A program made the translations under genes and the position numbers. Below the pieces are notes generated by a model. That model did no database searches. It was not told the origin of the DNA and worked only from the letters and a program-made list of their open reading frames with translations. Of a stretch of 64,000 bases of DNA, positions 2,893-14,470 are shown piece after piece. The stretch comes from Syntrophaceae bacterium. Lineage in GTDB: Bacteria > Desulfobacterota > BSN033 > UBA1163. Within the stretch, counting starts at the first letter, position 1. Each line of letters opens with the position of its first letter. The stretch is taken from positions 9,700 through 73,699 of the forward strand of contig JACAEV010000140.1 in the NCBI GenBank assembly GCA_013388645.1, written 5' to 3'.

Positions 2893-2927
2893 AATGTAAA
2901 ATGGGTGATTCTACTTTTTCACCTTTT

Positions 2928-3106
2928 CATTTCCCATCTCTCAGTTTCTGGATTTCTTTCTGGACGTCTTTCCACATATGGCCGTGAAGTGTGAGGGTCA
3001 ACTTGCAGATGGGACAGGTCAAGAGGGCACCTTCGAACAAATCCTCAACAGAATATTCTGTTTTTCGGCCACAAACGGGACAACTGAAGGGTAATTTCTG
3101 CTCCAT
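2928..3106 (-). CDS. Small zinc-ribbon protein (59 aa; CPVCG...CPICK)
   Basis: Hand translation of the minus strand gives MEQKLPFSCPVCGRKTEYSVEDLFEGALLTCPICKLTLTLHGHMWKDVQKEIQKLRDGK. It is below the ORF-track size cut-off and lies downstream of, and co-oriented with, the radical SAM gene 3227..4396. Confidence 0.45.
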
Positions 3107-3226
3107 TTAATTTTGACTATGTAAATAGATGAAGGCTGGCATTTCGAATGCGGACATCGTTACCTTCTGACGATACGTACATCGGTACCGTTGCCGTTAG
3201 ACTATACCCTCCTTTTTTATGTATTT

Positions 3227-4396
3227 CTATCCCCAGATCCCGGGGATGGGTTTCCCACAATATCGACACTTTCCCTCCTTCAAGTGGATCTCTCCCACCA
3301 TATAACCTGTCCGTTGAATGATCATTTTCTTGCATTTTGGGCAGAAAGTGTTCTCGGCTGCATGTCCTGGAATATTTCCGATATAAACGTACTCGAGACC
3401 GGCGGATAAAGCGGCCTCTCGGGCCTTCTCTAAGGTCGAAACGGGTGTTGGGGGAAGAGTCTTAAGTTTGTACAAGGGATAGAATCGAGAGAAATGGATG
3501 GGCGTATCTGAACCCAATTCTTTTTTGATCCAGGTACACATTTCTTTTAGCACTGACATCTCATCATTTTTGGTGGGGATGATGAGGGTGGTGATCTCCA
3601 GGTGGACGTTCTCTTGTTTCAGCGTTTTCAGTGTTTCAAGCACTGGATGGAGTTCTCCGCCACACAATTCACGATAAAAACTCTCCGTAAATCCCTTTAA
3701 ATCAATATTGGCGGCATCCAACACTTTGCAGAGGTTTTTGAGGGGAGCTGGATTGATAAAACCATTGGAGTGGGTGACGTTGAGAAGACCTGCTTTCTTC
3801 ACGAGTAAACTGATATCTGACATATATTCATAGAAGATCATTGGCTCCACATAAGTGTAAGCCACTGACCGGGCTCCGATCTCTTTTGCTCTGCTCACGA
3901 TCAATTCTGGTGGGACGTCATAGCTATATACATCCTCTGGGGAGGCCTGGGAGATCTCCCAATTCTGACAGAACTTACATTGGAAGTTACACCCTGCAGT
4001 GGCGAGCGAAAAGGAGGTCGTTCCAGGAAGGACATGGAAGAAAGGTTTCTTTTCAACCGGATCTAAATGAACCGCACAAGGATTTCCGTAAACTAAGCTA
4101 TAGTATTTACCATCCCGATTTTCCCGTACCCGACAAATACCTCTTTTCCCTTTAGCAACGCGGCACCGATGTGGGCATAGTTCACACTGAATCTCCCCGC
4201 CTTCCAATGGAGTGTAATAGGGCGAGAGTTTTGTCTTGATCAGCCCCTTTTTGGCCATTTGGGCATGGGAGAATGTCGCAAGGCTCGATAAAGAAACCGA
4301 GGAAAGGACACAAAGACTGGCCCCACAGAGACGCAAAAATTCCCGTTTTGTGAGGAGAGGAATGGAAGTAATTGGATCGGCTTGCCATTTGTCCAT
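3227..4396 (-). CDS. Radical SAM enzyme, PflX/AmmeMemoRadiSam-like (PFL-activase-related), with Tat-type signal peptide
   Basis: CNFQCKFCQNWEISQ CxxxCxxC radical SAM motif and an N-terminal CELCPHRCRVAKGKRGICRV Cys motif. The C-terminus has CPKCK...CRYCG. The N-terminus (TKREFLRLCGASLCVLSSVSLSSLATFSHA) looks like a KR-variant twin-arginine signal. Confidence 0.75.
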   Translation of the reverse strand: MDKWQADPITSIPLLTKREFLRLCGASLCVLSSVSLSSLATFSHAQMAKKGLIKTKLSPYYTPLEGGEIQCELCPHRCRVAKGKRGICRVRENRDGKYYSLVYGNPCAVHLDPVEKKPFFHVLPGTTSFSLATAGCNFQCKFCQNWEISQASPEDVYSYDVPPELIVSRAKEIGARSVAYTYVEPMIFYEYMSDISLLVKKAGLLNVTHSNGFINPAPLKNLCKVLDAANIDLKGFTESFYRELCGGELHPVLETLKTLKQENVHLEITTLIIPTKNDEMSVLKEMCTWIKKELGSDTPIHFSRFYPLYKLKTLPPTPVSTLEKAREAALSAGLEYVYIGNIPGHAAENTFCPKCKKMIIQRTGYMVGEIHLKEGKCRYCGKPIPGIWG

Positions 4397-4489
4397 GGTA
4401 ATAAATTATAAAAGAATCCATTCCGTAGTCAATCTTTTTCAGATTTTTGATGCTTCACAATTAAGATAGGTTTTTATATAATATTTTTA

Positions 4490-5545
4490 ATGGAAATTAC
4501 ACGTCGAGGTTTTATTAAACATTCTTTTCTTCTTGGGAGTTCATTTCTTTTCTCTTCTTCCCCCGTTTATTCAGCGGTGAAGAAAGAAGTAAAATGGATT
4601 CCAGCCTATGAAAAATTGGAAATGGATGGGAAATTGGCTCAAAGGGTGAAGCAAGCCTATGCCATATTTGAAAATTGTCACCTCTGCCCCAAAAAGTGTG
4701 GGGTCAATCGTCAAAAGGGGGAAAAGGGGTTCTGCAAAGCTCCATTGAAACCGGTCATTTTCAGCTATCATCCTCACTTCGGCGAAGAGAGGGCTTTAGT
4801 TGGGGGAAAGGGTTCTGGAACTATATTCTTTTCCAACTGCAACCTTCGCTGTATCTTCTGCCAGAACTGGCCTATTTCTCATGAGGGAAGAGGGAAAGAA
4901 ATTCAAGATGAAGATCTGGCTGACGTGATGCTAAAACTCCAGAGCATGGGATGTCATAATATCAACCTTGTCACCCCTACCCATGTCATGCCCAATATCT
5001 TGAATGCCACGCGAATGGCCCTGAAGAAGGGCCTTCATATCCCTTTGGTTTACAATACCAGTGGCTATGAACGTTTAGAGATCGTGAAACTTTTGGAGGG
5101 GATTGTTGATCTCTATTTACCGGATTTGAAATATATGGATTCGGATAAGGCAGCGAAGTATTCAGCCGGGGCTTCTGATTATCCTGAAGTGGCAAAAAAA
5201 GCAATTCTTGAGATGAACCGGCAGGTAGGCGTTCTCCAATTGGATAAAGAGGGAATTGCGATTCGTGGTTTGATGATCCGACACTTGGTCATGCCCAACC
5301 GAGTGGCTGGGACAGAGAAATTCGTCAAATGGGTAGCTGAAGCCCTCCCGAAAAATACTTACGTCAATATCATGGCTCAATATCGTGTAGAGTATAAAGC
5401 TTATGATTATCCAGAGATTGCTCGTGGAATTACCGTTCAGGAATTTATGGAGGCAATGGATTGGGCTGAAAAATATGGATTGACCAACCTCGACCCTCAA
5501 TCAGTAGCACTCAAGAATTTTTATCACCAACGCCGATCAAACTAA
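4490..5545 (+). CDS. Radical SAM enzyme, PflX-like (paralogue of 3227..4396), with canonical Tat signal peptide
   Basis: MEITRRGFIKHSFLLGSSFLFSSSPVYSA is an RRxFIK twin-arginine motif followed by a hydrophobic core and an AxA-like site. CNLRCIFCQNWPISH radical SAM motif. CHLCPKKCGVNRQKGEKGFCK N-terminal Cys motif. Divergent from 3227..4396 across a shared AT-rich promoter region. Confidence 0.75.
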   Translation: MEITRRGFIKHSFLLGSSFLFSSSPVYSAVKKEVKWIPAYEKLEMDGKLAQRVKQAYAIFENCHLCPKKCGVNRQKGEKGFCKAPLKPVIFSYHPHFGEERALVGGKGSGTIFFSNCNLRCIFCQNWPISHEGRGKEIQDEDLADVMLKLQSMGCHNINLVTPTHVMPNILNATRMALKKGLHIPLVYNTSGYERLEIVKLLEGIVDLYLPDLKYMDSDKAAKYSAGASDYPEVAKKAILEMNRQVGVLQLDKEGIAIRGLMIRHLVMPNRVAGTEKFVKWVAEALPKNTYVNIMAQYRVEYKAYDYPEIARGITVQEFMEAMDWAEKYGLTNLDPQSVALKNFYHQRRSN

Positions 5546-5978
5546 ACCCGTATGGAAATATCGGATTAAATACAATAAACCCCCTGAGAGAGGCTGGGCT
5601 TTTAAACCTGAGCTCGGTGATCGATAAGGATCTAAAACTTTCTATATTAACTATCCCCGGTTTAAATACTGGGGCTTTTTAATTGGATCAATTGCGATCA
5701 AACTGGGTTAAAATGCGAGGATTATTAGCACATTAATCCATTCGATTTTATTTGGTATTTTAAATTGGCAATAAGATGCGAATAAAAACCTCTCAAATAT
5801 AAGTTTTCGTTCTATTCTCACCCGTATAACCAAAATCCAGTTTATTTGTAACCAAATAATTTCATTAATATTTTTAGCTAACCTTTTTGAATAAGGACCC
5901 AAGAATTGTGGTATTAAAATTGCTCTATTTTAACCAAAAACCATTAATAAGTCGTTGACTGAGGGAAGGTTGATTCAA

Positions 5979-6119
5979 ATGTGGCAAAACTGGATCATTG
6001 GTTTATTAGGAACTTGGTTAATCGTTGCGTCTTTTATTATCGATGGGAATCTTATTAATCAATTAGTTGTTGGGATTGCTGTTGCCATTTTAGGTTTTTG
6101 GAAAGCTATTCAAGGTTAA
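5979..6119 (+). CDS. 46-aa hydrophobic two-helix membrane peptide (MWQNWIIGLLGTWLIVASFIIDGNLINQLVVGIAVAILGFWKAIQG)
   Basis: ATG is preceded by GAGGGAAGG. The stop lies 19 nt before the radical SAM gene 6139, whose own RBS TAAGGAGG follows, consistent with translational coupling. The peptide is Gly/Trp-rich with two predicted TM helices and is not in the ORF track (<60 aa). Confidence 0.35.
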   Translation: MWQNWIIGLLGTWLIVASFIIDGNLINQLVVGIAVAILGFWKAIQG

Positions 6120-6138: not shown

Positions 6139-7560
6139 ATGAACTTTTCAGAACAAATCAAAGATCTTACCGGTCAACAGGTTTCCAGGATGATTGTTGA
6201 ACTTTTAAGTAGGGTTTCTGATGAGCGGTTGATTCAATTGACTTATTTAGGAGAAAAATTGACATCTGATTATGAGATTTTAGGGGCCATCAAAGGCGTC
6301 AGAAATATGCTTGAAACTCCAGGACATCCTTCAAAAAAATTGTTCAGAGAGGTTCTGGAGTATCTCCCCCCCAAAAATCGAACCATTGTCTTTAATACTC
6401 TCTTTCACAACGCCTGGTTTATGGGAAATAGAAAAAGGGATCAATTTGAAAAGGAGCATGGATTTCGACCTCCCTTTGTCATGATTCTTAGCCCCACCTG
6501 GCAATGTAATTTGAGATGCGCGGGTTGCTATACTCTCGGTTACCAGAGATATCCCGGGCTTCCTTATGATCTAATTAAACGTATTTTGAGAGAATGTATG
6601 GATATTGGTCTTCACTTTATTACTGTCCTGGGAGGGGAACCCTTTATGTATCCTCATCTCTTTCAAATGATCGAAGATCACCCACAGATCTTTTTCCAGG
6701 TTTATACCAATGGGACATTGATGACCAGGGAGAAGGCAGAAAGGATCAGAGATTTAGGAAATGCCATGGTGGTCGTGAGCTGCGAAGGCTATGAGGAAGA
6801 GACGGATAAATGGAGAGGCCCTGGAGTCTATAAAAAGATCATGGAGGCAATGGATCATCTTCGTGAGGCACACGTCCTTTTTGGTTCTTCAGCAACCGTC
6901 ACCAAGGATAATGTGCAGGTCGTCTCCTCTGAAAAGTGGGTGGACCATCTTTTGAAGAAGGGGATTATCGCCCAGAATTATTTTCTTTATATCCCTGTAA
7001 ATGGACAAGGGGATATCAATCTCATGGTCACTCCGGAGCAACGAGACCATCTCCGGAAACAGGTCATTAAATTCAGAAGAACCAAACCGATGTTTATCCT
7101 TGATTTTTGGAATGATGGGCCTCATGTCCGTGGATGTATTGCCGGAGGGAGGAGATACTTTCATATTAATGCGAATGGAGATGTCGAGCCTTGTGTTTAT
7201 ACCCACGTGGCCATGGACAATATTAAGAATGTTTCTTTAGCGGAGGCACTCGATAGCCCTCTCTTCAGGGCCATTCGAAGGAGACAGCCCCATAATGAGA
7301 ATCATCTCAGGCCCTGCATGATCATCGACAATCCTGAACGACTGAGAGAAATTATTGAGGAGACCCATCCTTATTTTACACACCCCGGGGCAGAGGAAGT
7401 TGTGACCACCATGAAAGAGGAGATGGATGCCTATGCTGCAAGATTTGCAGTCTATGCAGATAAGGTCTGGAGAGAAGAGTATCTCAAGCCATCGACTATT
7501 TCAACGAGTTGCGCTTCCTCCAGCATCGGAGTTTCCATGGCGATGAAATCCGGCTCGTAA
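6139..7560 (+). CDS. Radical SAM domain protein with C-terminal auxiliary Cys cluster (HpnH-related/SPASM-like family), ~115-aa N-terminal extension
   Basis: WQCNLRCAGCY CxxxCxxC motif in a context (FVMILSPTWQCNLRCAGC, ITVLGGEPF) resembling adenosylhopane synthase HpnH. C-terminal GCIAGG...VEPCVYTH...RPCMIID Cys residues. Confidence 0.65.
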   Translation: MNFSEQIKDLTGQQVSRMIVELLSRVSDERLIQLTYLGEKLTSDYEILGAIKGVRNMLETPGHPSKKLFREVLEYLPPKNRTIVFNTLFHNAWFMGNRKRDQFEKEHGFRPPFVMILSPTWQCNLRCAGCYTLGYQRYPGLPYDLIKRILRECMDIGLHFITVLGGEPFMYPHLFQMIEDHPQIFFQVYTNGTLMTREKAERIRDLGNAMVVVSCEGYEEETDKWRGPGVYKKIMEAMDHLREAHVLFGSSATVTKDNVQVVSSEKWVDHLLKKGIIAQNYFLYIPVNGQGDINLMVTPEQRDHLRKQVIKFRRTKPMFILDFWNDGPHVRGCIAGGRRYFHINANGDVEPCVYTHVAMDNIKNVSLAEALDSPLFRAIRRRQPHNENHLRPCMIIDNPERLREIIEETHPYFTHPGAEEVVTTMKEEMDAYAARFAVYADKVWREEYLKPSTISTSCASSSIGVSMAMKSGS

Positions 7561-7806
7561 TTACCAAGGAGTCCATAATTGAAAAGACATATCGTTCTGA
7601 AAATCTCCCCTTTTGCCAAAGAGGGGTAATTCCTCCCTTTGCAAAAGGGAGGGGAGGAGGGATTTGGTCTTCAATGTCCATACAATTATGGACTGATTAG
7701 TATATCTTCTCAGCTTTGGGTCTTCTGATTGCGTTGGCATTCCTTTAACTCCCTGTCACTCCATTGACAACATCAATTTTTTTGTTATATTGAAGCGACA
7801 TTTTAG

Positions 7807-8427
7807 GTGTTGAAGATGAACTCTTATAAGAGTTTTAAAGAACTGAGCCGACATGAAGTGGACGGCAAAGACTATCGAACCAGGATTCAATTGAGAGATC
7901 CGCGCGTTCTGATCATGGCGCCTCATGGGGGAAAGATTGAGCCCGCTACAGAGATCATTGCTGAAGCGATTGCGGGTGAGGATTACTCCTTTTATAGCTT
8001 CGAAGGTTTGAAGGAAGATAGTCAAAAGCTTCATATCGAGAGCCATCTTTTTGATGAACCCAAGGCGCTCAAAGCCGTTGAAAAGGCTGATGTGGTGGTG
8101 ACCGTCCACGGACAGATTGATCAGAAAAAAGAGTTTGTGATGGTAGGAGGGCTCCATGACAGCTTAAGATTAGAGATCATACGGCAATTAGAGACGGCAG
8201 GTTTTCAAACCCGAACACCCACCGAAGGGCTGATGGGCACGGACCCACAGAATATCTGTAATCGAGGAAAATCAAAGCAGGGAGTCCAGTTAGAGGTCAG
8301 TCGAAAGGTTCGTGATTTGCTTAGAGCAAATAAGAATGAACTTCAAAAGTTTGTTAATGCGGTGCGAAAAGCGATTCAGATCTATTTAATTAGCGAGAAC
8401 TTCAATGCATCAATTTCCTGTGAGTGA
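7807..8427 (+). CDS. Poly-gamma-glutamate hydrolase family protein (YjqB/PghP-like, UPF0714)
   Basis: RVLIMAPHGGKIEPATEIIAEAIAGEDYSFYSFEGL and VTVHGQ motifs match the YjqB/PghP zinc-hydrolase family. Confidence 0.55.
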   Translation: MLKMNSYKSFKELSRHEVDGKDYRTRIQLRDPRVLIMAPHGGKIEPATEIIAEAIAGEDYSFYSFEGLKEDSQKLHIESHLFDEPKALKAVEKADVVVTVHGQIDQKKEFVMVGGLHDSLRLEIIRQLETAGFQTRTPTEGLMGTDPQNICNRGKSKQGVQLEVSRKVRDLLRANKNELQKFVNAVRKAIQIYLISENFNASISCE

Positions 8428-8761
8428 AGAGAAGAATAAGTGGCTTCAAGATAAGATGGAGACCCTCGGTATCCACGAAAAGGATATGGAAGAGCGATTC
8501 GTCCGATCCTCCGGCAGCGGTGGACAGAAGGTGAACAAGACCTCTACCTGTGTCTATCTCAAACATATTCCAACAGGAATTGAAATAAAATGCATGGAAG
8601 AAAGAAGTCAATCTCTCAATCGGTTTCTTGCCAGACGCGAACTGGTGAGAAGGATCGAAAAGTTGTCAGGGAAGTTGACCTCTGAAGAGATAAAGATTGA
8701 AAAGATAAAGCGGCAAAAGTTAAAAAGAAGGAAAAGGGCAAGGCAGAAATATTCGCTATAG
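8405..8761 (+). CDS. arfB: ArfB-like peptidyl-tRNA hydrolase (class I release-factor GGQ domain with basic C-terminal tail)
   Basis: SSGSGGQKVNKTSTCVYLKH GGQ motif. C-terminal tail EKIKRQKLKRRKRARQKY is Lys/Arg-rich like the ArfB ribosome-binding tail. Overlaps the upstream gene by 23 nt. Confidence 0.6.
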   Translation: MHQFPVSEEKNKWLQDKMETLGIHEKDMEERFVRSSGSGGQKVNKTSTCVYLKHIPTGIEIKCMEERSQSLNRFLARRELVRRIEKLSGKLTSEEIKIEKIKRQKLKRRKRARQKYSL

Positions 8762-8768
8762 GTCAAGG

Positions 8769-9362
8769 TTGAAGTTGCGGAGGGAGAAACTTGTGGAGAA
8801 AGAGATTGCGAAATTTATGTATGAGATGGGTCAGCTTAAAAGGGTGAAGCGGTCAGGGTGGTGGATTGCTGGCGTGAAGGACCCTGAGAGTGTGGCAGAA
8901 CATACATTCAGGACGGCGGCCATTGCTTATCTTCTTGCTCATTTAGAAGGAGTGGATATTGAAAAAGCAGTCCTCATGGCGTTATTTCATGATATGCCAG
9001 AGACGAGAACCAACGACGCCCATCGAATTGTCCGAAGGTATGTAAACTGGAAAGAGGTTGATAACCAGGCAGTGAGGGATCAATCAAAAAGACTTCCTGA
9101 CGAGATCCAAGCACAGATGGTCAATCTATTGGGAGAGTTTGAAAAAGAGGTGTCTCCGGAAGCAAAAGTAGTTCGTGATGCAGATCTTCTCGAATGTATC
9201 TTGCAGGCACGTGAATATCACGCCTTAGGATATACGGATGTGGCGGATTGGATTTTTAATGCTCAGACCGCTCTCAAAACAGAATCGGCAAAGAAGTTAG
9301 CTTCGGAATGTCTTAAGACTGAACCCAAAGAATGGTGGCAAGGGTTGAAAGCAAAAGAATAA
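8769..9362 (+). CDS. HD-domain phosphohydrolase (YfbR-like 5'-deoxynucleotidase family)
   Basis: AEHTFRTAAIAYLLAH...LFHDMPETRTND H-HD-D metal-binding motifs. The track start is TTG; an in-frame ATG at 8817 is an alternative start. Confidence 0.65.
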   Translation: MKLRREKLVEKEIAKFMYEMGQLKRVKRSGWWIAGVKDPESVAEHTFRTAAIAYLLAHLEGVDIEKAVLMALFHDMPETRTNDAHRIVRRYVNWKEVDNQAVRDQSKRLPDEIQAQMVNLLGEFEKEVSPEAKVVRDADLLECILQAREYHALGYTDVADWIFNAQTALKTESAKKLASECLKTEPKEWWQGLKAKE

Positions 9363-9378
9363 GGGGAGATGGAAGAAG

Positions 9379-11058
9379 ATGAAGAAAAGGCTTTTGGTCG
9401 TTGGAGGGGTCGCCGCTGGCCCCAAAGCCGCAGCCAAGGCAAGAAGATGTGATCCTGAGATGGAGATTGCTATTTATCAAGAAGAGGATGAAATCTCCTA
9501 TGCGGGATGTGGACTTCCTTACTATATTAGCGGAGTTATACAAGAAAGAGAGGATTTGATCTCACGCACGCCAGGCAAGTTTGCCCTGGAAGGGATAAAA
9601 ATATTGAAAAATCGCAGGATCGAAAAAATTGATATCAGCGACCATGTTATCATTGGTAAAAGGATTGGTTCCGGAGAGACCTTTACAGATCGTTTTGATC
9701 AATTGGTCATCGCAACAGGAGCCTATCCGATTCGGCCTAAAATCGAAGGGATTCATTTGGGCAATGTTTTCTATCTTCGTTCCATCTTGGATGCCGATGC
9801 CATTTATGAAAGGATACAATCTGGAGGTATTCAAAACGTTACGATTGTTGGAGGGGGTTATATTGGGCTGGAGATGGCTGAATCACTCATCCATTTAGGG
9901 AAAAAGGTGACCATCGTTGAGTTGGCTCCCCAAATTTTAACACTCTTCGATGAAGATTTTGCTGGCATATTGAGACAATATTTAGAGAGGAAGGGGGTGA
10001 ACGTTTTTACCTCAGAGGGAATCCAAGCACTGGAAGGGAAGGGAGGAAGAGTGTCCCACGTCACTACTGTGTCAAAGGAGATAGAAACGGATATGGTTTT
10101 GATGAGTCTTGGGATTCGACCTCAGGTTGAGCTGGCCAAACAGGCTGGATTAAGAATTGGGGAGACAGGGGCGATCTGGGTGAATGAGAAAATGGAGACA
10201 AGTATTGAGGGAATTTATGCCGCAGGTGATTGTGCGGAGACGACCCATCTCATCACAGGGAAAAAGGTTTGGATCCCTTTAGGGTCGACTGCCAACAAAC
10301 AGGGCAGAGTGGTCGGAGTAAATGTCTGCGGTGGAAATGCGATCTTTCCAGGGGTGATGGGGACAACGGTCTTTAAAACCTTTGACTTCAATGTAGCTAA
10401 GACAGGATTGAGCATGAGAGAGGCAGAAATGGAAGGATTTCGTCCTATTCAAGCCATTGTGAGGGGGTATGATCGTGCTCACTATTATCCAGGGGAAAAA
10501 GAATCGACGTTAAAGGTCATCGCAGACAAAGGGACGGGTCGAATTCTTGGAGGTCAGGCAATCGGTGAGGGGCCCTCGGATAAATTCATTGATATCCTGG
10601 CAATGGCCCTTCATGATAAAATGACATGCCGGGAATTAGTCAATGTGGATTTAGCTTATGCCCCTCCTTTCAGTCCTGTTCTTTCGCCCATCATCGTGGC
10701 GGCCAACGTGTTATCGAACAAACTGGATGGAAACGTTGAGGGCATTTCAGCTGCAGAGGTGAGAGAGAAGCTTGAAACACAGAAAAAAAATTTCCAGGTT
10801 ATCGATGTCAGAGAAGAGGACGAGGTGAAAGAAAAGCGAATTCCTAACACCACTTGGATCCCATACGGAGACCTCAAAAATAGGATGGGTGAACTCGATA
10901 GAGAAAAAGAGATTGTCGTCCATTGCGAGTCAGGTCTCCGATCTTATAAAGCCTGTCTCAAACTTCAACACGAAGGTTTCCAGGATGTGAAGAACATCGA
11001 TGGAGGCATGCTCTGTTGGTGCTATGATGTAGAGCCTGAAGGTAATGAAAAAGGGTAA
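9379..11058 (+). CDS. CoA-disulfide reductase / NAD(P)H persulfide reductase-like flavoprotein with C-terminal rhodanese domain
   Basis: N-terminal LLVVGGVAAGPKAA FAD fold and SYAGCGLPY redox-active Cys of the NADH oxidase/CoADR family. C-terminal rhodanese with VVHCESGLRS active-site Cys loop. Confidence 0.8.
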   Translation: MKKRLLVVGGVAAGPKAAAKARRCDPEMEIAIYQEEDEISYAGCGLPYYISGVIQEREDLISRTPGKFALEGIKILKNRRIEKIDISDHVIIGKRIGSGETFTDRFDQLVIATGAYPIRPKIEGIHLGNVFYLRSILDADAIYERIQSGGIQNVTIVGGGYIGLEMAESLIHLGKKVTIVELAPQILTLFDEDFAGILRQYLERKGVNVFTSEGIQALEGKGGRVSHVTTVSKEIETDMVLMSLGIRPQVELAKQAGLRIGETGAIWVNEKMETSIEGIYAAGDCAETTHLITGKKVWIPLGSTANKQGRVVGVNVCGGNAIFPGVMGTTVFKTFDFNVAKTGLSMREAEMEGFRPIQAIVRGYDRAHYYPGEKESTLKVIADKGTGRILGGQAIGEGPSDKFIDILAMALHDKMTCRELVNVDLAYAPPFSPVLSPIIVAANVLSNKLDGNVEGISAAEVREKLETQKKNFQVIDVREEDEVKEKRIPNTTWIPYGDLKNRMGELDREKEIVVHCESGLRSYKACLKLQHEGFQDVKNIDGGMLCWCYDVEPEGNEKG

Positions 11059-11138
11059 ATGAGAGAAACGGGTTCGATGCTCAAAAGAAGGCGATGCCCC
11101 CTTACTTTCAAAAGCGGGAACCATTCCTTTGAGCACCC

Positions 11139-12425
11139 TCATTGAAGCACATCGGTGGAATCTTCTACGATTTCCCATATCGTAGGGGATGAAGGATCTG
11201 AGAGGTCTCGGATTCGTCCGTGTTCGTCACCCACCATGGGACATAATGGATATCCGGTATGGGTCTCAACGATGATCCCACTACTTCCATCCGAGAGGAC
11301 GACCCTCCTTCCCGCAGCCAGCACATTTAACAGCAGCAGGAAGGATGAGACATACTCCTTGTGAAGTTTTCCTGATAAGGCTTCTCTGATCAGAATCGTC
11401 GCTGCTTTAGCAACAGATAACGCTTGCCGATAGGGACGGACAGTGCGGAGAGCATCGTAGACATCGGCGACGGCGACAAGGAGGCTTGCAAAATGTAATG
11501 TGTGCTGGGGAAGACGTTGCTGAATCTTTGGATATCCGGATTGATTGGCCCCCATATGGTGTTGATAGGCGACTACCGGAAGGAGAGGGTTGGCGGATTC
11601 TACGCCGGGGATATCCAGAAGGAGTTGAGCACCGCAGAATGGGTGCCTCTCCATAAGAAGCCGCTCATGCGGTTCAAGAGGGCCATTGCGGTTTAAGATT
11701 TCTTTAGGGACTTCTTTCTTTCCAAGATCGTGGCAGAGGGCAGCCATGGAGATGGCATTGACCATTTCATCGGGGAGTCGGAGCGCCCGTGCCAGAGCGG
11801 ATGAAAGAACACAAACATTGAGGGCATGAGTAAAGGTGTAGTCGTCGAAGTTCTTCATTTCACGGATCGGCTCAAAAAGTTCTCTACCCACTGCCAATCG
11901 GGCAACAATTGCACATACGACCTCTCTGGCTCGAACGAGACCTTCGGGTTTTTTGGATTCAAGATCTGAGAGGACTCCTTGGGCTTCGGCGAGGAATCCC
12001 AGATACCCCGTGACCGCCCGAGTTAAAACAGAACTGGGCGTGACCTTTCTTTCTAATTTCAGGGAACCGGTGATGATTTTTAAACTCCGGTAAGGGGTTC
12101 GTTCCTTAGCCACCACCGTTTCGATCCATAAGGTGAGATCATCCTCTCTCGCATCCGGTTCAATTTGAATACTCTCAAATCCAAGTTGCTGGAGTGATTG
12201 AAAGAGAGCGCTGTAGGAAATGGGAATGTTTTCGATCCTCCGGTCTTCGACAATCGTATCATTTCCGAGGAAAGTAATCCTCACTGGCCGTCCCCAAGCA
12301 GCCAGTTTTTGAGAAGCTTGCTTAGCCGATTGGAGAATCTGTTTGGCCCCAGGAGGATAGATTCGGCGCATCCGAAAGAGAGCCCCAAGGTTGCAAAGAA
12401 AATAATCAAGGGCATCCTGCCCCAT
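11139..12425 (-). CDS. HD-GYP domain c-di-GMP phosphodiesterase with novel N-terminal domain
   Basis: HALNVCVLSSALA...LCHDLGK...HHMGANQSGYPKI are the HD and GYP motifs. The N-terminal ~100 aa are paralogous to the N-terminus of the upstream 609-aa protein. The start overlaps that gene by 20 nt. Confidence 0.8.
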   Translation of the reverse strand: MGQDALDYFLCNLGALFRMRRIYPPGAKQILQSAKQASQKLAAWGRPVRITFLGNDTIVEDRRIENIPISYSALFQSLQQLGFESIQIEPDAREDDLTLWIETVVAKERTPYRSLKIITGSLKLERKVTPSSVLTRAVTGYLGFLAEAQGVLSDLESKKPEGLVRAREVVCAIVARLAVGRELFEPIREMKNFDDYTFTHALNVCVLSSALARALRLPDEMVNAISMAALCHDLGKKEVPKEILNRNGPLEPHERLLMERHPFCGAQLLLDIPGVESANPLLPVVAYQHHMGANQSGYPKIQQRLPQHTLHFASLLVAVADVYDALRTVRPYRQALSVAKAATILIREALSGKLHKEYVSSFLLLLNVLAAGRRVVLSDGSSGIIVETHTGYPLCPMVGDEHGRIRDLSDPSSPTIWEIVEDSTDVLQ

Positions 12426-14235
12426 AGCTTTTCTCCCTTTTGGGTGGATACCAGTGGTTCTGGGAAATCAACCCCCCTCTTTCCCGCTCTCCCTTTTGGT
12501 TAGAGAGGTAGGTCTGGACTCTCTTCAGGGCTCTCAGGGCTTCACTACTCACCTTTGGATGAGGGTGATTTAAAAGAGCCTGAAGAGGACGAAGCACCTG
12601 AGGAAGTCCTTGCTGTCCGAGAACGATGGCAAGATTACGGGCAACGTACCAGGGACTGATGCGCGACTTTACCACAAAGGTTGGGGTTGCGGCTGAAGAG
12701 AAGCAGGAGAGGAGGTTGACGAGAAAATGGCGTTTGGAAATTTGTTCCTCTTCAGCCAGGGCCTTTAATGCCGTTTCGAGGAGACATTTTTCATGGTTCA
12801 CGGCAAAGGTGATGAGAGCATGCTGCTCCGGGAAAGAGGTTTTCGTAATGGCTGAAAGGCCTTTTTTAAATAAGTCTTTGACAAGGGAAGGAACGGAATC
12901 GAGCAGTTCTGGGAAGGTTCGATCCACCAGTCTGATAAAACCGAGAACACGCAGCGGACCCAACTGCTCCACACGTGCCTCGATACGGTTGAGGAGCCTT
13001 TTCTTAAAATCTTCTCCTTCCTCCAAGGCCAGGGCGAGAATCAGTTGATCCAAATATTCATCGGGGTCCTTCAACAAAAACGGTGTTTCCTCCTCCGGGC
13101 AAATCGTGGAAGAGGGATGAACCAAAAATTCAAGTGACTCGGAATACTCTGAATCCATAAAAGGGTTTTCTGATAGATTGATAATAAGATCCTCTACGGT
13201 CTTCCACACCTCCGCCGTAAACCCAGCATCCTTACCCGGAGATAACCTTGACTTGATCAATGTGAGGATTTCATCCGTTTTAGTGATTGGGGCAAAACGC
13301 CGGTATACCTCTACAAATCGATGAGTTCCTTGCTCGCCCAATGCAGCCAGCCCCGCGAGAAGATCGATAAATCGCTCTCCATCGATTTCCTTCAATAATG
13401 AGGCTTTCCCGAGTCCCAATCGCTTGGACTCCTGACCTTCGCGTCCTACGATTCGAACAAGATCTCTGACAGAGAGGAGCTTCCCCATTTGTGCAAGGTA
13501 ATTGAGGATGTCTTCCCGTTGACCTTCTGGAAGAAGGGATAGCGCATCCTCCAAACGCTCACCCAACATGAGCAAAAATTTCGTAAACCCCTCTGAATCG
13601 CCAAATCCCGATTCCGTCCACTCCTCCTTTGCGATTTCCCAGAATTCTTCAGAAGCAAGGGCAATGGCAAGCTGTTCAGTAGGGGCTTCGTGGCTCATGA
13701 GAGCAAGCCAAGCTTGGCGACGTCTTCGTTCCGGGTTTTCCTTAGAATCTTTCACTGCATCCGTAATCTCACTATGGATCTGATCCAGCTTCAGGGGCTC
13801 AATGTCGATAGTGAATACCTCAGAACGAAGTTGATGTCGGAGTTCTTGTCCTTCTAATTTGAGCGTGGAAATCACCCGAGCAAAACCCCAGACATCGTCA
13901 AGGGTCGCTTCTTTTGTCCAGAATATCTGAAGCACCTTTCTTGCATGCAACATCGAAGCAAGAGGGGTTGCCTTCCCAGCAATGAATTCTCCTGAAACGA
14001 CGAGCTCCTTGGAGGTGACCCCGATCGTAAGACTGCCTGTTGAATCGAACGGGACAGAATTTAGGACATTTTTAGCGACTTCGAGAAGGGTGGGGTGCTT
14101 GTTGGGATAGATGCGAACGCCGCGAATGAGGTGGACCAGATTTAAGGCAAATACCTCAACCTTTTTGGCGACTGTAGAAACTTCATTATTTTTCGATTCT
14201 ATCATGAATAACCTAAAAAAACCCAAACCAATCAA
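12406..14235 (-). CDS. 609-aa HEAT-repeat protein sharing its N-terminal domain with the HD-GYP protein
   Basis: C-terminal PWYVARNLAIVLGQQGLPQVLRPLQALLNHPHPKVSSEALRAL looks like HEAT/PBS-lyase repeats. N-terminal LIRGVRIYPNKHPTLLEVAK aligns with LFRMRRIYPPGAKQILQSAK of the HD-GYP protein. Confidence 0.45.
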   Translation of the reverse strand: MIGLGFFRLFMIESKNNEVSTVAKKVEVFALNLVHLIRGVRIYPNKHPTLLEVAKNVLNSVPFDSTGSLTIGVTSKELVVSGEFIAGKATPLASMLHARKVLQIFWTKEATLDDVWGFARVISTLKLEGQELRHQLRSEVFTIDIEPLKLDQIHSEITDAVKDSKENPERRRRQAWLALMSHEAPTEQLAIALASEEFWEIAKEEWTESGFGDSEGFTKFLLMLGERLEDALSLLPEGQREDILNYLAQMGKLLSVRDLVRIVGREGQESKRLGLGKASLLKEIDGERFIDLLAGLAALGEQGTHRFVEVYRRFAPITKTDEILTLIKSRLSPGKDAGFTAEVWKTVEDLIINLSENPFMDSEYSESLEFLVHPSSTICPEEETPFLLKDPDEYLDQLILALALEEGEDFKKRLLNRIEARVEQLGPLRVLGFIRLVDRTFPELLDSVPSLVKDLFKKGLSAITKTSFPEQHALITFAVNHEKCLLETALKALAEEEQISKRHFLVNLLSCFSSAATPTFVVKSRISPWYVARNLAIVLGQQGLPQVLRPLQALLNHPHPKVSSEALRALKRVQTYLSNQKGERERGGLISQNHWYPPKREKSYGAGCP

Positions 14236-14470
14236 ATTTTTATATTATCGCCAAAGGCGATCCGGCCTGCGGTTCCTAAATAAGCAAGTTCAATGCCAGC
14301 ACCGAAAAAGTGGCTTAACCCCTTATTTTATTTAAATATATTCAATTTGTAATATTAATTTTTTGACCGAATAATGACTTTTTTTGTCACCTAAAAAGAA
14401 GTCATGATGGCAATGTTATTTCATCGGCCCTTCAAGGAGTGTCAAGAATTACGGCGGGATTTTGGTCTGG

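Follow-up and report, generated by a model that had tools for sequence, protein, structure and literature searches.

Tat-type leader peptides on two adjacent radical SAM enzymes of a Syntrophaceae bacterium suggest a radical SAM pair outside the cytoplasm

Introduction

Radical S-adenosylmethionine (SAM) enzymes constitute one of the largest enzyme superfamilies, which is treated as strictly cytoplasmic. Their activity depends on SAM, on a donor of low-potential electrons and on the assembly of iron-sulfur (Fe-S) clusters, both SAM and reductants of this kind being cytoplasmic, and we know of no exported radical SAM enzyme. In this work we analyzed a 64,000-nucleotide stretch of contig JACAEV010000140.1 (hereafter, the window) from a metagenome-assembled Syntrophaceae genome, in which two adjacent genes, designated here as A and B, encode different radical SAM enzymes, each starting with a leader peptide of the twin-arginine translocation (Tat) type. 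The evolution of these leaders, the features of homologous proteins and the genomic context of the pair argue that both enzymes are probably exported.

One of the closest described systems is AmmeMemoRadiSam (TIGR04337). The A protein passes its family model and shares with it Cx2Cx3C...C in the N-terminal region, CX3CX2C and a CxxC...CxxC ribbon in the C-terminal region, but differs by its N-terminal Tat-type leader. The defining AMMECR1 and Memo genes were not found near A, where a radical SAM enzyme of the PflX type and a membrane protein, C1, appear in their place. In a tblastn search with the Memo and AMMECR1 domains of P0267, a fusion protein among the relatives of A, neither the window nor any of the fetched loci gave a match at E ≤ 0.01, with the limited sensitivity of one query each. 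This bears out the initial annotation of the locus, made from the sequence alone, in which the usual trio had been dismissed for the same reason. As for the glycyl-radical activases, PflA (3C8F) is the best and the sole relative of A and B found among solved structures, albeit a distant one, and databases name both proteins ‘pyruvate formate lyase activating enzyme’. Neither of them reaches the cut-off of an activase model, the scores of A and B being 48.7 and 23.4 with TIGR02493 (cut-off 231.75), and 44.5 and 22.8 with TIGR02494 (cut-off 174.35). Both also differ from the activases by an extra N-terminal four-cysteine motif and by the leader peptide, known glycyl-radical activases being cytoplasmic.

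The Tat pathway exports folded cofactor-containing proteins, e.g., small subunits of hydrogenases, the Rieske protein and periplasmic formate dehydrogenase, and glucose-fructose oxidoreductase is exported by this route with bound NADP (nicotinamide adenine dinucleotide phosphate). The proteins of the A/B family resemble such Fe-S and other cofactor proteins in the tripartite leader with the S/T-R-R-x-F-L-K motif, but their passenger is a radical SAM enzyme, whose co-substrate SAM and reductant have no known supply outside the cytoplasm. A link between radical SAM chemistry and a periplasmic function, similar to the one considered here, is found in the HXS antiphage system, where a radical SAM enzyme reportedly matures a periplasmic effector (PMC13128918). 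In our case the radical SAM enzymes carry the signal themselves, and no client gene is linked to them. Finally, close relatives of A are fused to modules known from the ApbE-flavinylated systems (FMN_bind, NosR/NapH-like and DsbD-like; PMC8238504) with the [ST]GAT motif. These fusions would offer an electron route to a radical SAM domain located at or beyond the membrane, whereas A and B of the window are devoid of them. Taken together, the enzyme families and the signal type are known, and their combination, with a conserved partner of its own, is unprecedented.

Results and Discussion

Two Enzymes of Different Families

Gene A (positions 3227–4396 of the window, minus strand; 389 amino acids with the leader included, according to the listing of open reading frames, ORFs) encodes an enzyme of the AmmeMemoRadiSam type. 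In a profile search it matched TIGR04337 with 386.8 bits (cut-off 220) over residues 60–388 and, since the match starts only at residue 60, the N-terminal region of A represents an appended extension. Gene B (4490–5545, plus strand; 351 amino acids with the leader included, from the same listing) scored 22.6 bits with this model and is thus outside the family. The matches of B to curated models were limited to Radical_SAM of Pfam (PF04055; 52.4 bits, compared to 71.5 bits for A) and to weak activase models. Its placing in the PflX/COG1313 group rests on the name of its close homologues at the Joint Genome Institute, ‘putative pyruvate formate lyase activating enzyme’ (PflX group), and on the shared N-terminal PxYxxL...CxLCPRxCxVNR...GxC region, while no model of the group was present in NCBIfam or Pfam as searched. 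The term “PflX-like”, initially applied to both proteins, suits B by this placing, A being a member of TIGR04337.

The cysteine motifs were found as described earlier: CELCPHRC...GIC and CNFQCKFCQNW in A, CHLCPKKC...GFC and CNLRCIFCQNW in B, i.e., both proteins possess a Cx2Cx3C...C motif followed by CNxxCxFCQNW, and A has a C-terminal CxxC...CxxC ribbon. Both can be aligned to PflA of Escherichia coli with the core motifs CX3CX2C, TNG/NTSG, DLK and VVP kept, and these core positions are invariant across the B alignment. The identity between A and B is 25% over 110 residues, which speaks for two families and no recent duplication. Close homologues are numerous for both proteins (120 for A at 81–100% identity and 120 for B at 77–100%). 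The AlphaFold2 model of B, built from a shallow alignment, had a mean pLDDT (predicted local distance difference test) of 44 and was judged too poor for fold comparison.

Leader Peptides of A and B

The leader of A (residues 1–45; 4262–4396, minus strand) consists of an n-region, the TKREFLR motif, a weakly hydrophobic core and an S-H-A|Q site, its final residues being LLTKREFLRLCGASLCVLSSVSLSSLATFSHA directly before the Gln of the mature part. The leader of B (residues 1–29; 4490–4576, plus strand), MEITRRGFIKHSFLLGSSFLFSSSPVYSA, includes TRRGFIK, a weakly hydrophobic core and VYSA. TRRGFIK fits the S/T-R-R-x-F-L-K consensus exactly. TKREFLR is a KR variant, and since distant orthologues of A carry the canonical S/T-R-R-x-F-L, the KR pair is a derived feature within an RR clade. 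Both leaders, including the KR one, had been noticed in the initial annotation, and our analysis confirmed them. The uncharged core following the motif comprises 19 residues in B and 23 in A, with the highest 19-residue Kyte-Doolittle window of 1.11 and 1.58, respectively. The value for B is too weak for a stable membrane helix. The hydropathy of both cores is presumably comparable to that of the TorA, SufI and DmsA signals of E. coli, well below that of the Sec signal of OmpA and unlike that of a membrane anchor.

Conservation of the leaders was measured over about 115 close homologues per protein (77–100% identical). In A, the motif residues K17, R18, F20 and L21 were kept in 98, 100, 100 and 97% of sequences, and the residues S43, A45 and Q46 of the cleavage region in 98, 99 and 96%, respectively. 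In B, R5, R6 and F8 were conserved at 90, 91 and 89%, the shortfall matching N-terminally truncated gene calls among the homologues, and the core was variable. Hence, the twin-basic pair (RR or KR) and the Phe are retained in 89–100% of close homologues, i.e., orthologues do conserve the motif. The mean identity to the window residue was 0.50 in the leader versus 0.84 in the mature part for B, and 0.47 versus 0.89 for A. Conservation of the targeting motif and the cleavage region with rapid drift of the core between them, as seen in these alignments, is the signal-peptide mode of evolution. The VYSA site of B varies among its relatives, where LHA, YAA and LAG occur. Leaderless homologues begin exactly at the start of the mature parts of A and B, so in either protein the leader has been appended to an enzyme that is complete without it.

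The leaders are translated parts of conserved ORFs, and the architecture of the A/B spacer (4397–4489, 93 bp, AT-rich, assigned to neither strand) agrees with this. It harbors two back-to-back sigma-70-like promoters, namely TTGACT-16-TATAAT on the minus strand toward A, with the –10 box ending 8 nt before the ATG, and TTCACA-17-TATAAT on the plus strand toward B, with the –10 box ending 7 nt before the ATG. Each of them matches 11 of 12 consensus positions, and the entire window, both strands counted, contains only six such sites, these two among them. No Shine-Dalgarno sequence was revealed ahead of A or B. The location of promoter-like sites directly before the ATGs supports the annotated starts, hence the translation of the leaders, and it may be that A and B are expressed as leaderless mRNAs.

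Curated Tat models recognize the leader family, as seen from profile matches, though neither of the window sequences on its own. TIGR01409 matched 59 of 92 orthologous leaders at E ≤ 1 (best E 3e-7), PF10518 (TAT_signal) matched 27 of them, the Tat model of formate dehydrogenases 16 and the Rieske Tat signal 8. According to a crude Tat-like rule, one version of which was applied to all sets, Tat-like N-termini are characteristic of 54–63% of the radical SAM cluster versus 4–9% of other ORFs from the same loci.

A peculiarity of these leaders is the presence of cysteines within the core. Leaders of A conserve Cys24 and Cys29 (4310–4327 of the window), the FLxxCGxSxC pattern being kept at 97–100% in close relatives, and B leaders of the subclade coupled to C1 carry (A/S)KxC(C/F/I)xAGL. 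Core cysteines are also present in leaders from loci L010, L011, L021, L022, L025, L038, L048–L052 and L057. These conserved residues fall outside lipobox positions, and cysteines are not normally conserved at such positions of signal peptide cores.

Distribution and Origin of the Leader-Bearing Forms

Scanning of one genome per species with the B alignment yielded 80 loci, about half of which carry S/T-R-R-x-F-(I/L)-(K/R) leaders. According to the labels of the metagenome-assembled genomes (MAGs), leader-bearing B is distributed over about 12 phyla: Desulfobacterota, Spirochaetota, Acidobacteriota (including Aminicenantes), Planctomycetota, Bacillota (Syntrophomonadaceae and Clostridia), Latescibacterota, Gemmatimonadota, Chloroflexota, Nitrospirota, Balneolales/Bacteroidota, Calditrichota and a gammaproteobacterium. 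In the other loci (from Dehalococcoidia, Geobacteraceae, Moorellales and others) the B protein starts directly at the mature N-terminus. In the neighbor-joining tree of mature parts leader-bearing B form one clade, sister to the leaderless one. The few exceptions within the leader-bearing clade are explained by contig ends, miscalled starts or degenerate leaders. The A-type neighbors also constitute one leader-bearing clade with a branching order similar to that of B. The leader-bearing forms are monophyletic across many phyla, and such a topology is that of a single origin followed by long retention, as far as the trees reflect it. Two contigs binned as Spirochaetota (L004 and L042) encode homologues of B with 76 and 68% identity to the Syntrophaceae protein, i.e., closer to it than many of the Desulfobacterota ones, which points to either mis-binning or a recent horizontal transfer of the B-C1 unit.

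Relatives of A were sought exhaustively among 1.8 billion representatives at 50% identity, and the best 150 were classed by their N-termini. By the crude rule 41 of them are Tat-like, nearly all with canonical RR (a few more were recognized by eye), while 82 possess no extension and 12 have another hydrophobic N-terminus.

Marks of Translocation in Relatives

Seven of the leaders end with a strict lipobox followed by a linker rich in Pro, Thr and Glu, and several more possess relaxed lipoboxes. The examples are ...AVALSGC-SPEDT of a Pirellulales MAG, ...LSGLSGC-TEEDSKEKD of a Clostridia MAG and ...LVLSSC-KPTTPSED of an Anaerolineae MAG. As only a protein crossing the membrane has a use for a lipobox and a tether, they represent an independent mark of translocation.

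Another mark comes from domain fusions. In the A relatives P0259 and P0260, one N-terminal helix is followed by FMN_bind, in which the flavinylation motif [ST]GAT is intact, and then by the radical SAM domain. Flavinylated FMN_bind domains typify extracytosolic redox proteins (PMC8238504), and as no helix intervenes between the two domains of P0259 and P0260, their radical SAM domain is placed on the extracytosolic side. Other A relatives are fused to NosR-like FMN_bind+Fer4_5 modules or DsbD_2 membrane domains, to a beta-propeller or to CBM11. Fusions were noted in P0244, P0245, P0252, P0257, P0259, P0260, P0267, P0271, P0248 and P0255, and in one arrangement among them Memo and AMMECR1 come after a signal-like N-terminus. 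Judging by these architectures, the TIGR04337 family seems to have a membrane or extracytosolic branch. The phrase “radical SAM” is absent from the flavinylation surveys PMC8238504 and PMC11334425.

Linkage of A and B to Each Other and to the Membrane Protein C1

A and B are genetically linked to each other and to C1. Leader-bearing B adjoins a leader-bearing A-type enzyme in about 20 loci, where the two genes are mostly convergent, co-directional in three cases and divergent in the window. Thus the divergent arrangement, correctly noted for the window at first, is a peculiarity of this genome and not the general layout. C1 is a protein of 760–890 amino acids named ‘fused MFS/spermidine synthase’ (NF037959, PF01564, PF07690), where MFS stands for the major facilitator superfamily. 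In 24 of the roughly 58 loci of the leader clade it neighbors B, A or both of them, compared to none of about 22 leaderless loci (Fisher p = 9e-5). Its gene abuts B with a 4-nt overlap in L035 and L038 and with gaps of 4–18 nt in L032, L041 and L050, and in L086 it is located beside an A-type enzyme with an RR leader. In the 80 loci, C1 and the partner radical SAM enzyme are the only shared large neighbors, and no glycyl-radical enzyme occurs as a shared neighbor. The conserved neighborhood is therefore made up of the A/B pair and C1, the latter being invisible in the first inspection of the sequence.

Hydropathy and charge, profiled as a consensus over 20 diverse C1 proteins, show seven helices, a soluble domain of about 320 residues and again seven helices, i.e., the 6+6 layout canonical for MFS, extended by a single helix before the insert and another after it. 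All K/R-rich short loops in this profile are opposite to the soluble domain. According to the positive-inside rule, the spermidine-synthase-like domain of C1 is thus predicted to face the periplasm. The AlphaFold2 model of C1, of low confidence (pLDDT 55, shallow alignment) and, like that of B, judged too poor for fold comparison, shows an agreeing secondary structure of seven helices, an alpha-beta part and about seven helices.

Export of A and B and Alternative Explanations

Three independent lines, i.e., the leaders themselves, the lipoboxes and extracytosolic fusions of relatives, and the predicted topology of C1, lead to the outer side of the cytoplasmic membrane. On the basis of these comparisons we regard it as probable that A and B are two distinct radical SAM enzymes of the PflA superfamily, exported by Tat as folded, cluster-loaded proteins. 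Three roles had been offered for the leaders in the initial annotation. Export of a loaded enzyme is now favored, membrane tethering would be realized, via lipid, in some lineages, and hitch-hiking of one enzyme on the other is not favored, as each has a leader of its own.

A number of observations weigh against export. As SAM and low-potential reductants are cytoplasmic, radical SAM chemistry outside the cytoplasm would be left unexplained, and the searchable literature contains no description of an exported or Tat-signal-bearing radical SAM enzyme, a prior mention in Burroughs et al. (2019), who analyzed the contexts of Memo, AMMECR1 and radical SAM genes, being possible. The leader of B scored 12.7 bits with TIGR01409 (E = 0.13), below the cut-off of 16.7, and the leader of A, with KR instead of RR, gave no match to the curated Tat models TIGR01409 and PF10518. 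The crude rule, in turn, has a background match rate of 4–9%. VYSA with its Tyr at –3 is a poor signal-peptidase site, and the mature N-termini of A and B are rich in lysine (AKKGLIKTK in A, net charge +4). The A relatives P0255, P0263 and P0267 have Sec-like or plain hydrophobic N-termini, which are hard to square with the export of an Fe-S protein and would be compatible with simple anchoring. No Tat genes were detected in the 64-kb window by a crude regular-expression search, which included TatA. As regards the partner, C1 was not found in the window, it also stands alone in related genomes, and its topology was derived from a home-made hydropathy analysis.

Could the leaders be annotation artefacts, the true starts being Met47 in A and Met45 in B and the codons upstream of them untranslated? 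Met47 directly follows the putative cleavage site of A, the database entry P0218 was called from it, and some B entries were called from a downstream Met. Nevertheless, Met47 is kept in just 50% of close relatives, being replaced by Ala, Thr, Ser, Pro or Gly in the rest, and in hundreds of sequences from about 12 phyla the frame upstream stays open and contains the conserved motif. Met45 of B sits within the conserved PAYEKLExxGKL helix, which leaderless homologues retain and which a start at this codon would cut. Moreover, Met47 is not preceded by a Shine-Dalgarno sequence, while strong promoter-like sites abut the annotated ATGs. Internal starts, which had been named from the outset as a finding that would overturn the leaders, were thus rejected, and we consider such an artefact hardly credible. 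An explanation deserving more attention, though still unlikely in our opinion, is that the leaders are membrane anchors or targeting peptides, which keep the catalytic domains at the cytoplasmic face beside the MFS-like partner, with no translocation and with RR acting as a positive cap. It would satisfy the need of radical SAM chemistry for cytoplasmic SAM and reductant, and it agrees with the plain hydrophobic N-termini without RR in some relatives and with the scores of the window leaders below the curated Tat cut-offs. The lysine-rich segments after the cores are also in its favor, the downstream flank in A being more positive than the upstream one, so that the charge balance around the A core alone does not dictate the N-in orientation. 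At the same time, the core of B (1.11) is too weak for a stable helix, the specific S/T-R-R-x-F-L/I-K motif is kept across phyla, with 59 of 92 leaders recognized by a curated Tat model, and the S-x-A-Q site of A is conserved at 96–99%. The lipobox and linker of orthologues imply translocation, FMN_bind fusions without an intervening helix place the radical SAM domain outside, and the soluble domain of C1 is predicted to be periplasmic, all of which is at odds with anchoring at the cytoplasmic face.

It is also conceivable, but rather improbable, that A and B perform their chemistry on a client in the cytoplasm and are then exported by Tat together with it, as a form of co-export or quality control, or that the leaders are chaperone-binding remnants of the NarG type with no export at all. 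With such a mode no SAM is needed outside the cytoplasm, and PflA-type enzymes are indeed one-shot activases. Tat is capable of carrying hetero-oligomers (PMC10924467), and radical SAM maturases of exported effectors exist, HXS reportedly being an example (PMC13128918). However, no conserved gene of a client and no conserved small precursor ORF was found beside A/B, where only lineage-specific families were noted, in leaderless Dehalococcoidia and in Aminicenantes. Each enzyme has its own leader, and the lipid anchor in many lineages suggests permanent residence outside. As a polytopic membrane protein, C1, the one partner that is conserved, is no Tat passenger. As to the remnants of the NarG type, they are devoid of the hydrophobic core and the cleavage site, whereas the leaders of A and B are complete.

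Returning to export of both enzymes, the following scheme is our inference as regards actual translocation, the sites of cleavage, the supply of SAM and electrons beyond the cytoplasm and the catalyzed reaction. A and B would fold and acquire their [4Fe-4S] cluster(s) in the cytoplasm, possibly also binding SAM there, and the Tat translocase would carry them in the folded state across the cytoplasmic membrane. In the bacterium studied, signal peptidase I would release them into the periplasm, cleaving A at S-H-A|Q and B, less certainly, near V-Y-S-A, while orthologues of other lineages would remain lipid-anchored through the lipobox cysteine. Outside, both enzymes would act together on an envelope substrate, in many genomes along with C1, a protein of about 14 helices with its spermidine-synthase-like domain on the same side. 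SAM might be co-exported in the enzyme-bound form and serve for a single turnover, as in PflA-type activases, or as a regenerated cofactor. Such co-export would have a counterpart in glucose-fructose oxidoreductase, which Tat exports with bound NADP. Alternatively, it might be delivered by the MFS part of C1. Electrons could be provided by periplasmic low-potential carriers of anaerobes or by modules like those fused to the radical SAM domain in sister lineages.

In its most extended form, which we put forward only tentatively and hold to be possible rather than probable, this scheme describes a first extracytoplasmic radical SAM system: a Tat-exported pair, lipid-anchored in some phyla, would operate at the outer face of the cytoplasmic membrane with C1, whose transporter part may deliver SAM, decarboxylated SAM or a substrate, electrons would arrive via NosR-like, DsbD-like and flavinylated FMN_bind modules of the kind fused in sister lineages, and the radical chemistry would be aimed at a lipid of the envelope, a polyamine or a component of the cell wall. 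A clade spread over many phyla with Tat signals, in part with lipoprotein anchors and extracytosolic flavin domains, would, if this is true, break the cytoplasmic-only rule for radical SAM enzymes. It raises the questions of whether SAM is co-exported or pumped out, what reduces the cluster outside and which envelope molecule is radically modified in anaerobes, and it gives a handle on the uncharacterized families TIGR04337, PflX/COG1313 and ‘fused MFS/spermidine synthase’. Should export be disproved, the leaders would still represent an unusual conserved membrane-targeting device of radical SAM enzymes.

Neighboring Genes and Minor Observations

The zinc-ribbon ORF of 59 amino acids located 120 nt downstream of A on the minus strand (2927–3106 according to the ORF listing, i.e., starting one base earlier than the initially reported 2928) had been supposed to be co-transcribed with one of the two enzymes. 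It is present beside A only in two contigs of the same population (L001 and L002) and in none of the 80 other loci, and was therefore rejected as a part of the system. Its matches, of a YnfU-like kind, were weak and below the cut-off. Two further ORFs, of 103 and 54 amino acids, were rejected as well, being found only in contigs of the same population. The very hydrophobic 54-amino-acid ORF (5955–6119) lies directly upstream of a radical SAM/SPASM protein of 473 amino acids (6139–7560), which has only sub-threshold matches to heme and peptide maturases. Judging by this arrangement, the two could be a separate pair for peptide or cofactor maturation. The SPASM gene clustered with no other locus and does not belong to the system of A and B.

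The gene of a NifU/IscU-like Fe-S scaffold (2076–2576) adjoins the pair of Fe-S enzymes. It recurs near the module in L032 alone, so it was not accepted as a part of the system, and its link to A and B may be coincidental. A secreted protein of 790 amino acids encoded beside B in Aminicenantes looks like a lineage-specific, glycosidase-like neighbor and was likewise set aside.

The loci with leaderless B from Dehalococcoidia/Chloroflexi (L054, L058, L061, L062 and L068) have surroundings of another kind: in all five B is followed by an acylphosphatase-like gene of 93 amino acids, and in four of them (all except L062) it is preceded by a lysine-rich ORF of about 48 amino acids. Such gene order suggests that the cytoplasmic branch, with leaderless B, has a distinct system of its own.

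At the left end of the window a sulfatase-like membrane protein is encoded (16–2049). Beyond this end, the corresponding contig of the same population (L001, positions 7611–14369) carries a sigma-54 two-component pair, a lipid A acyltransferase-like gene, SIS-domain genes and the CRISPR genes cas2/cas1.

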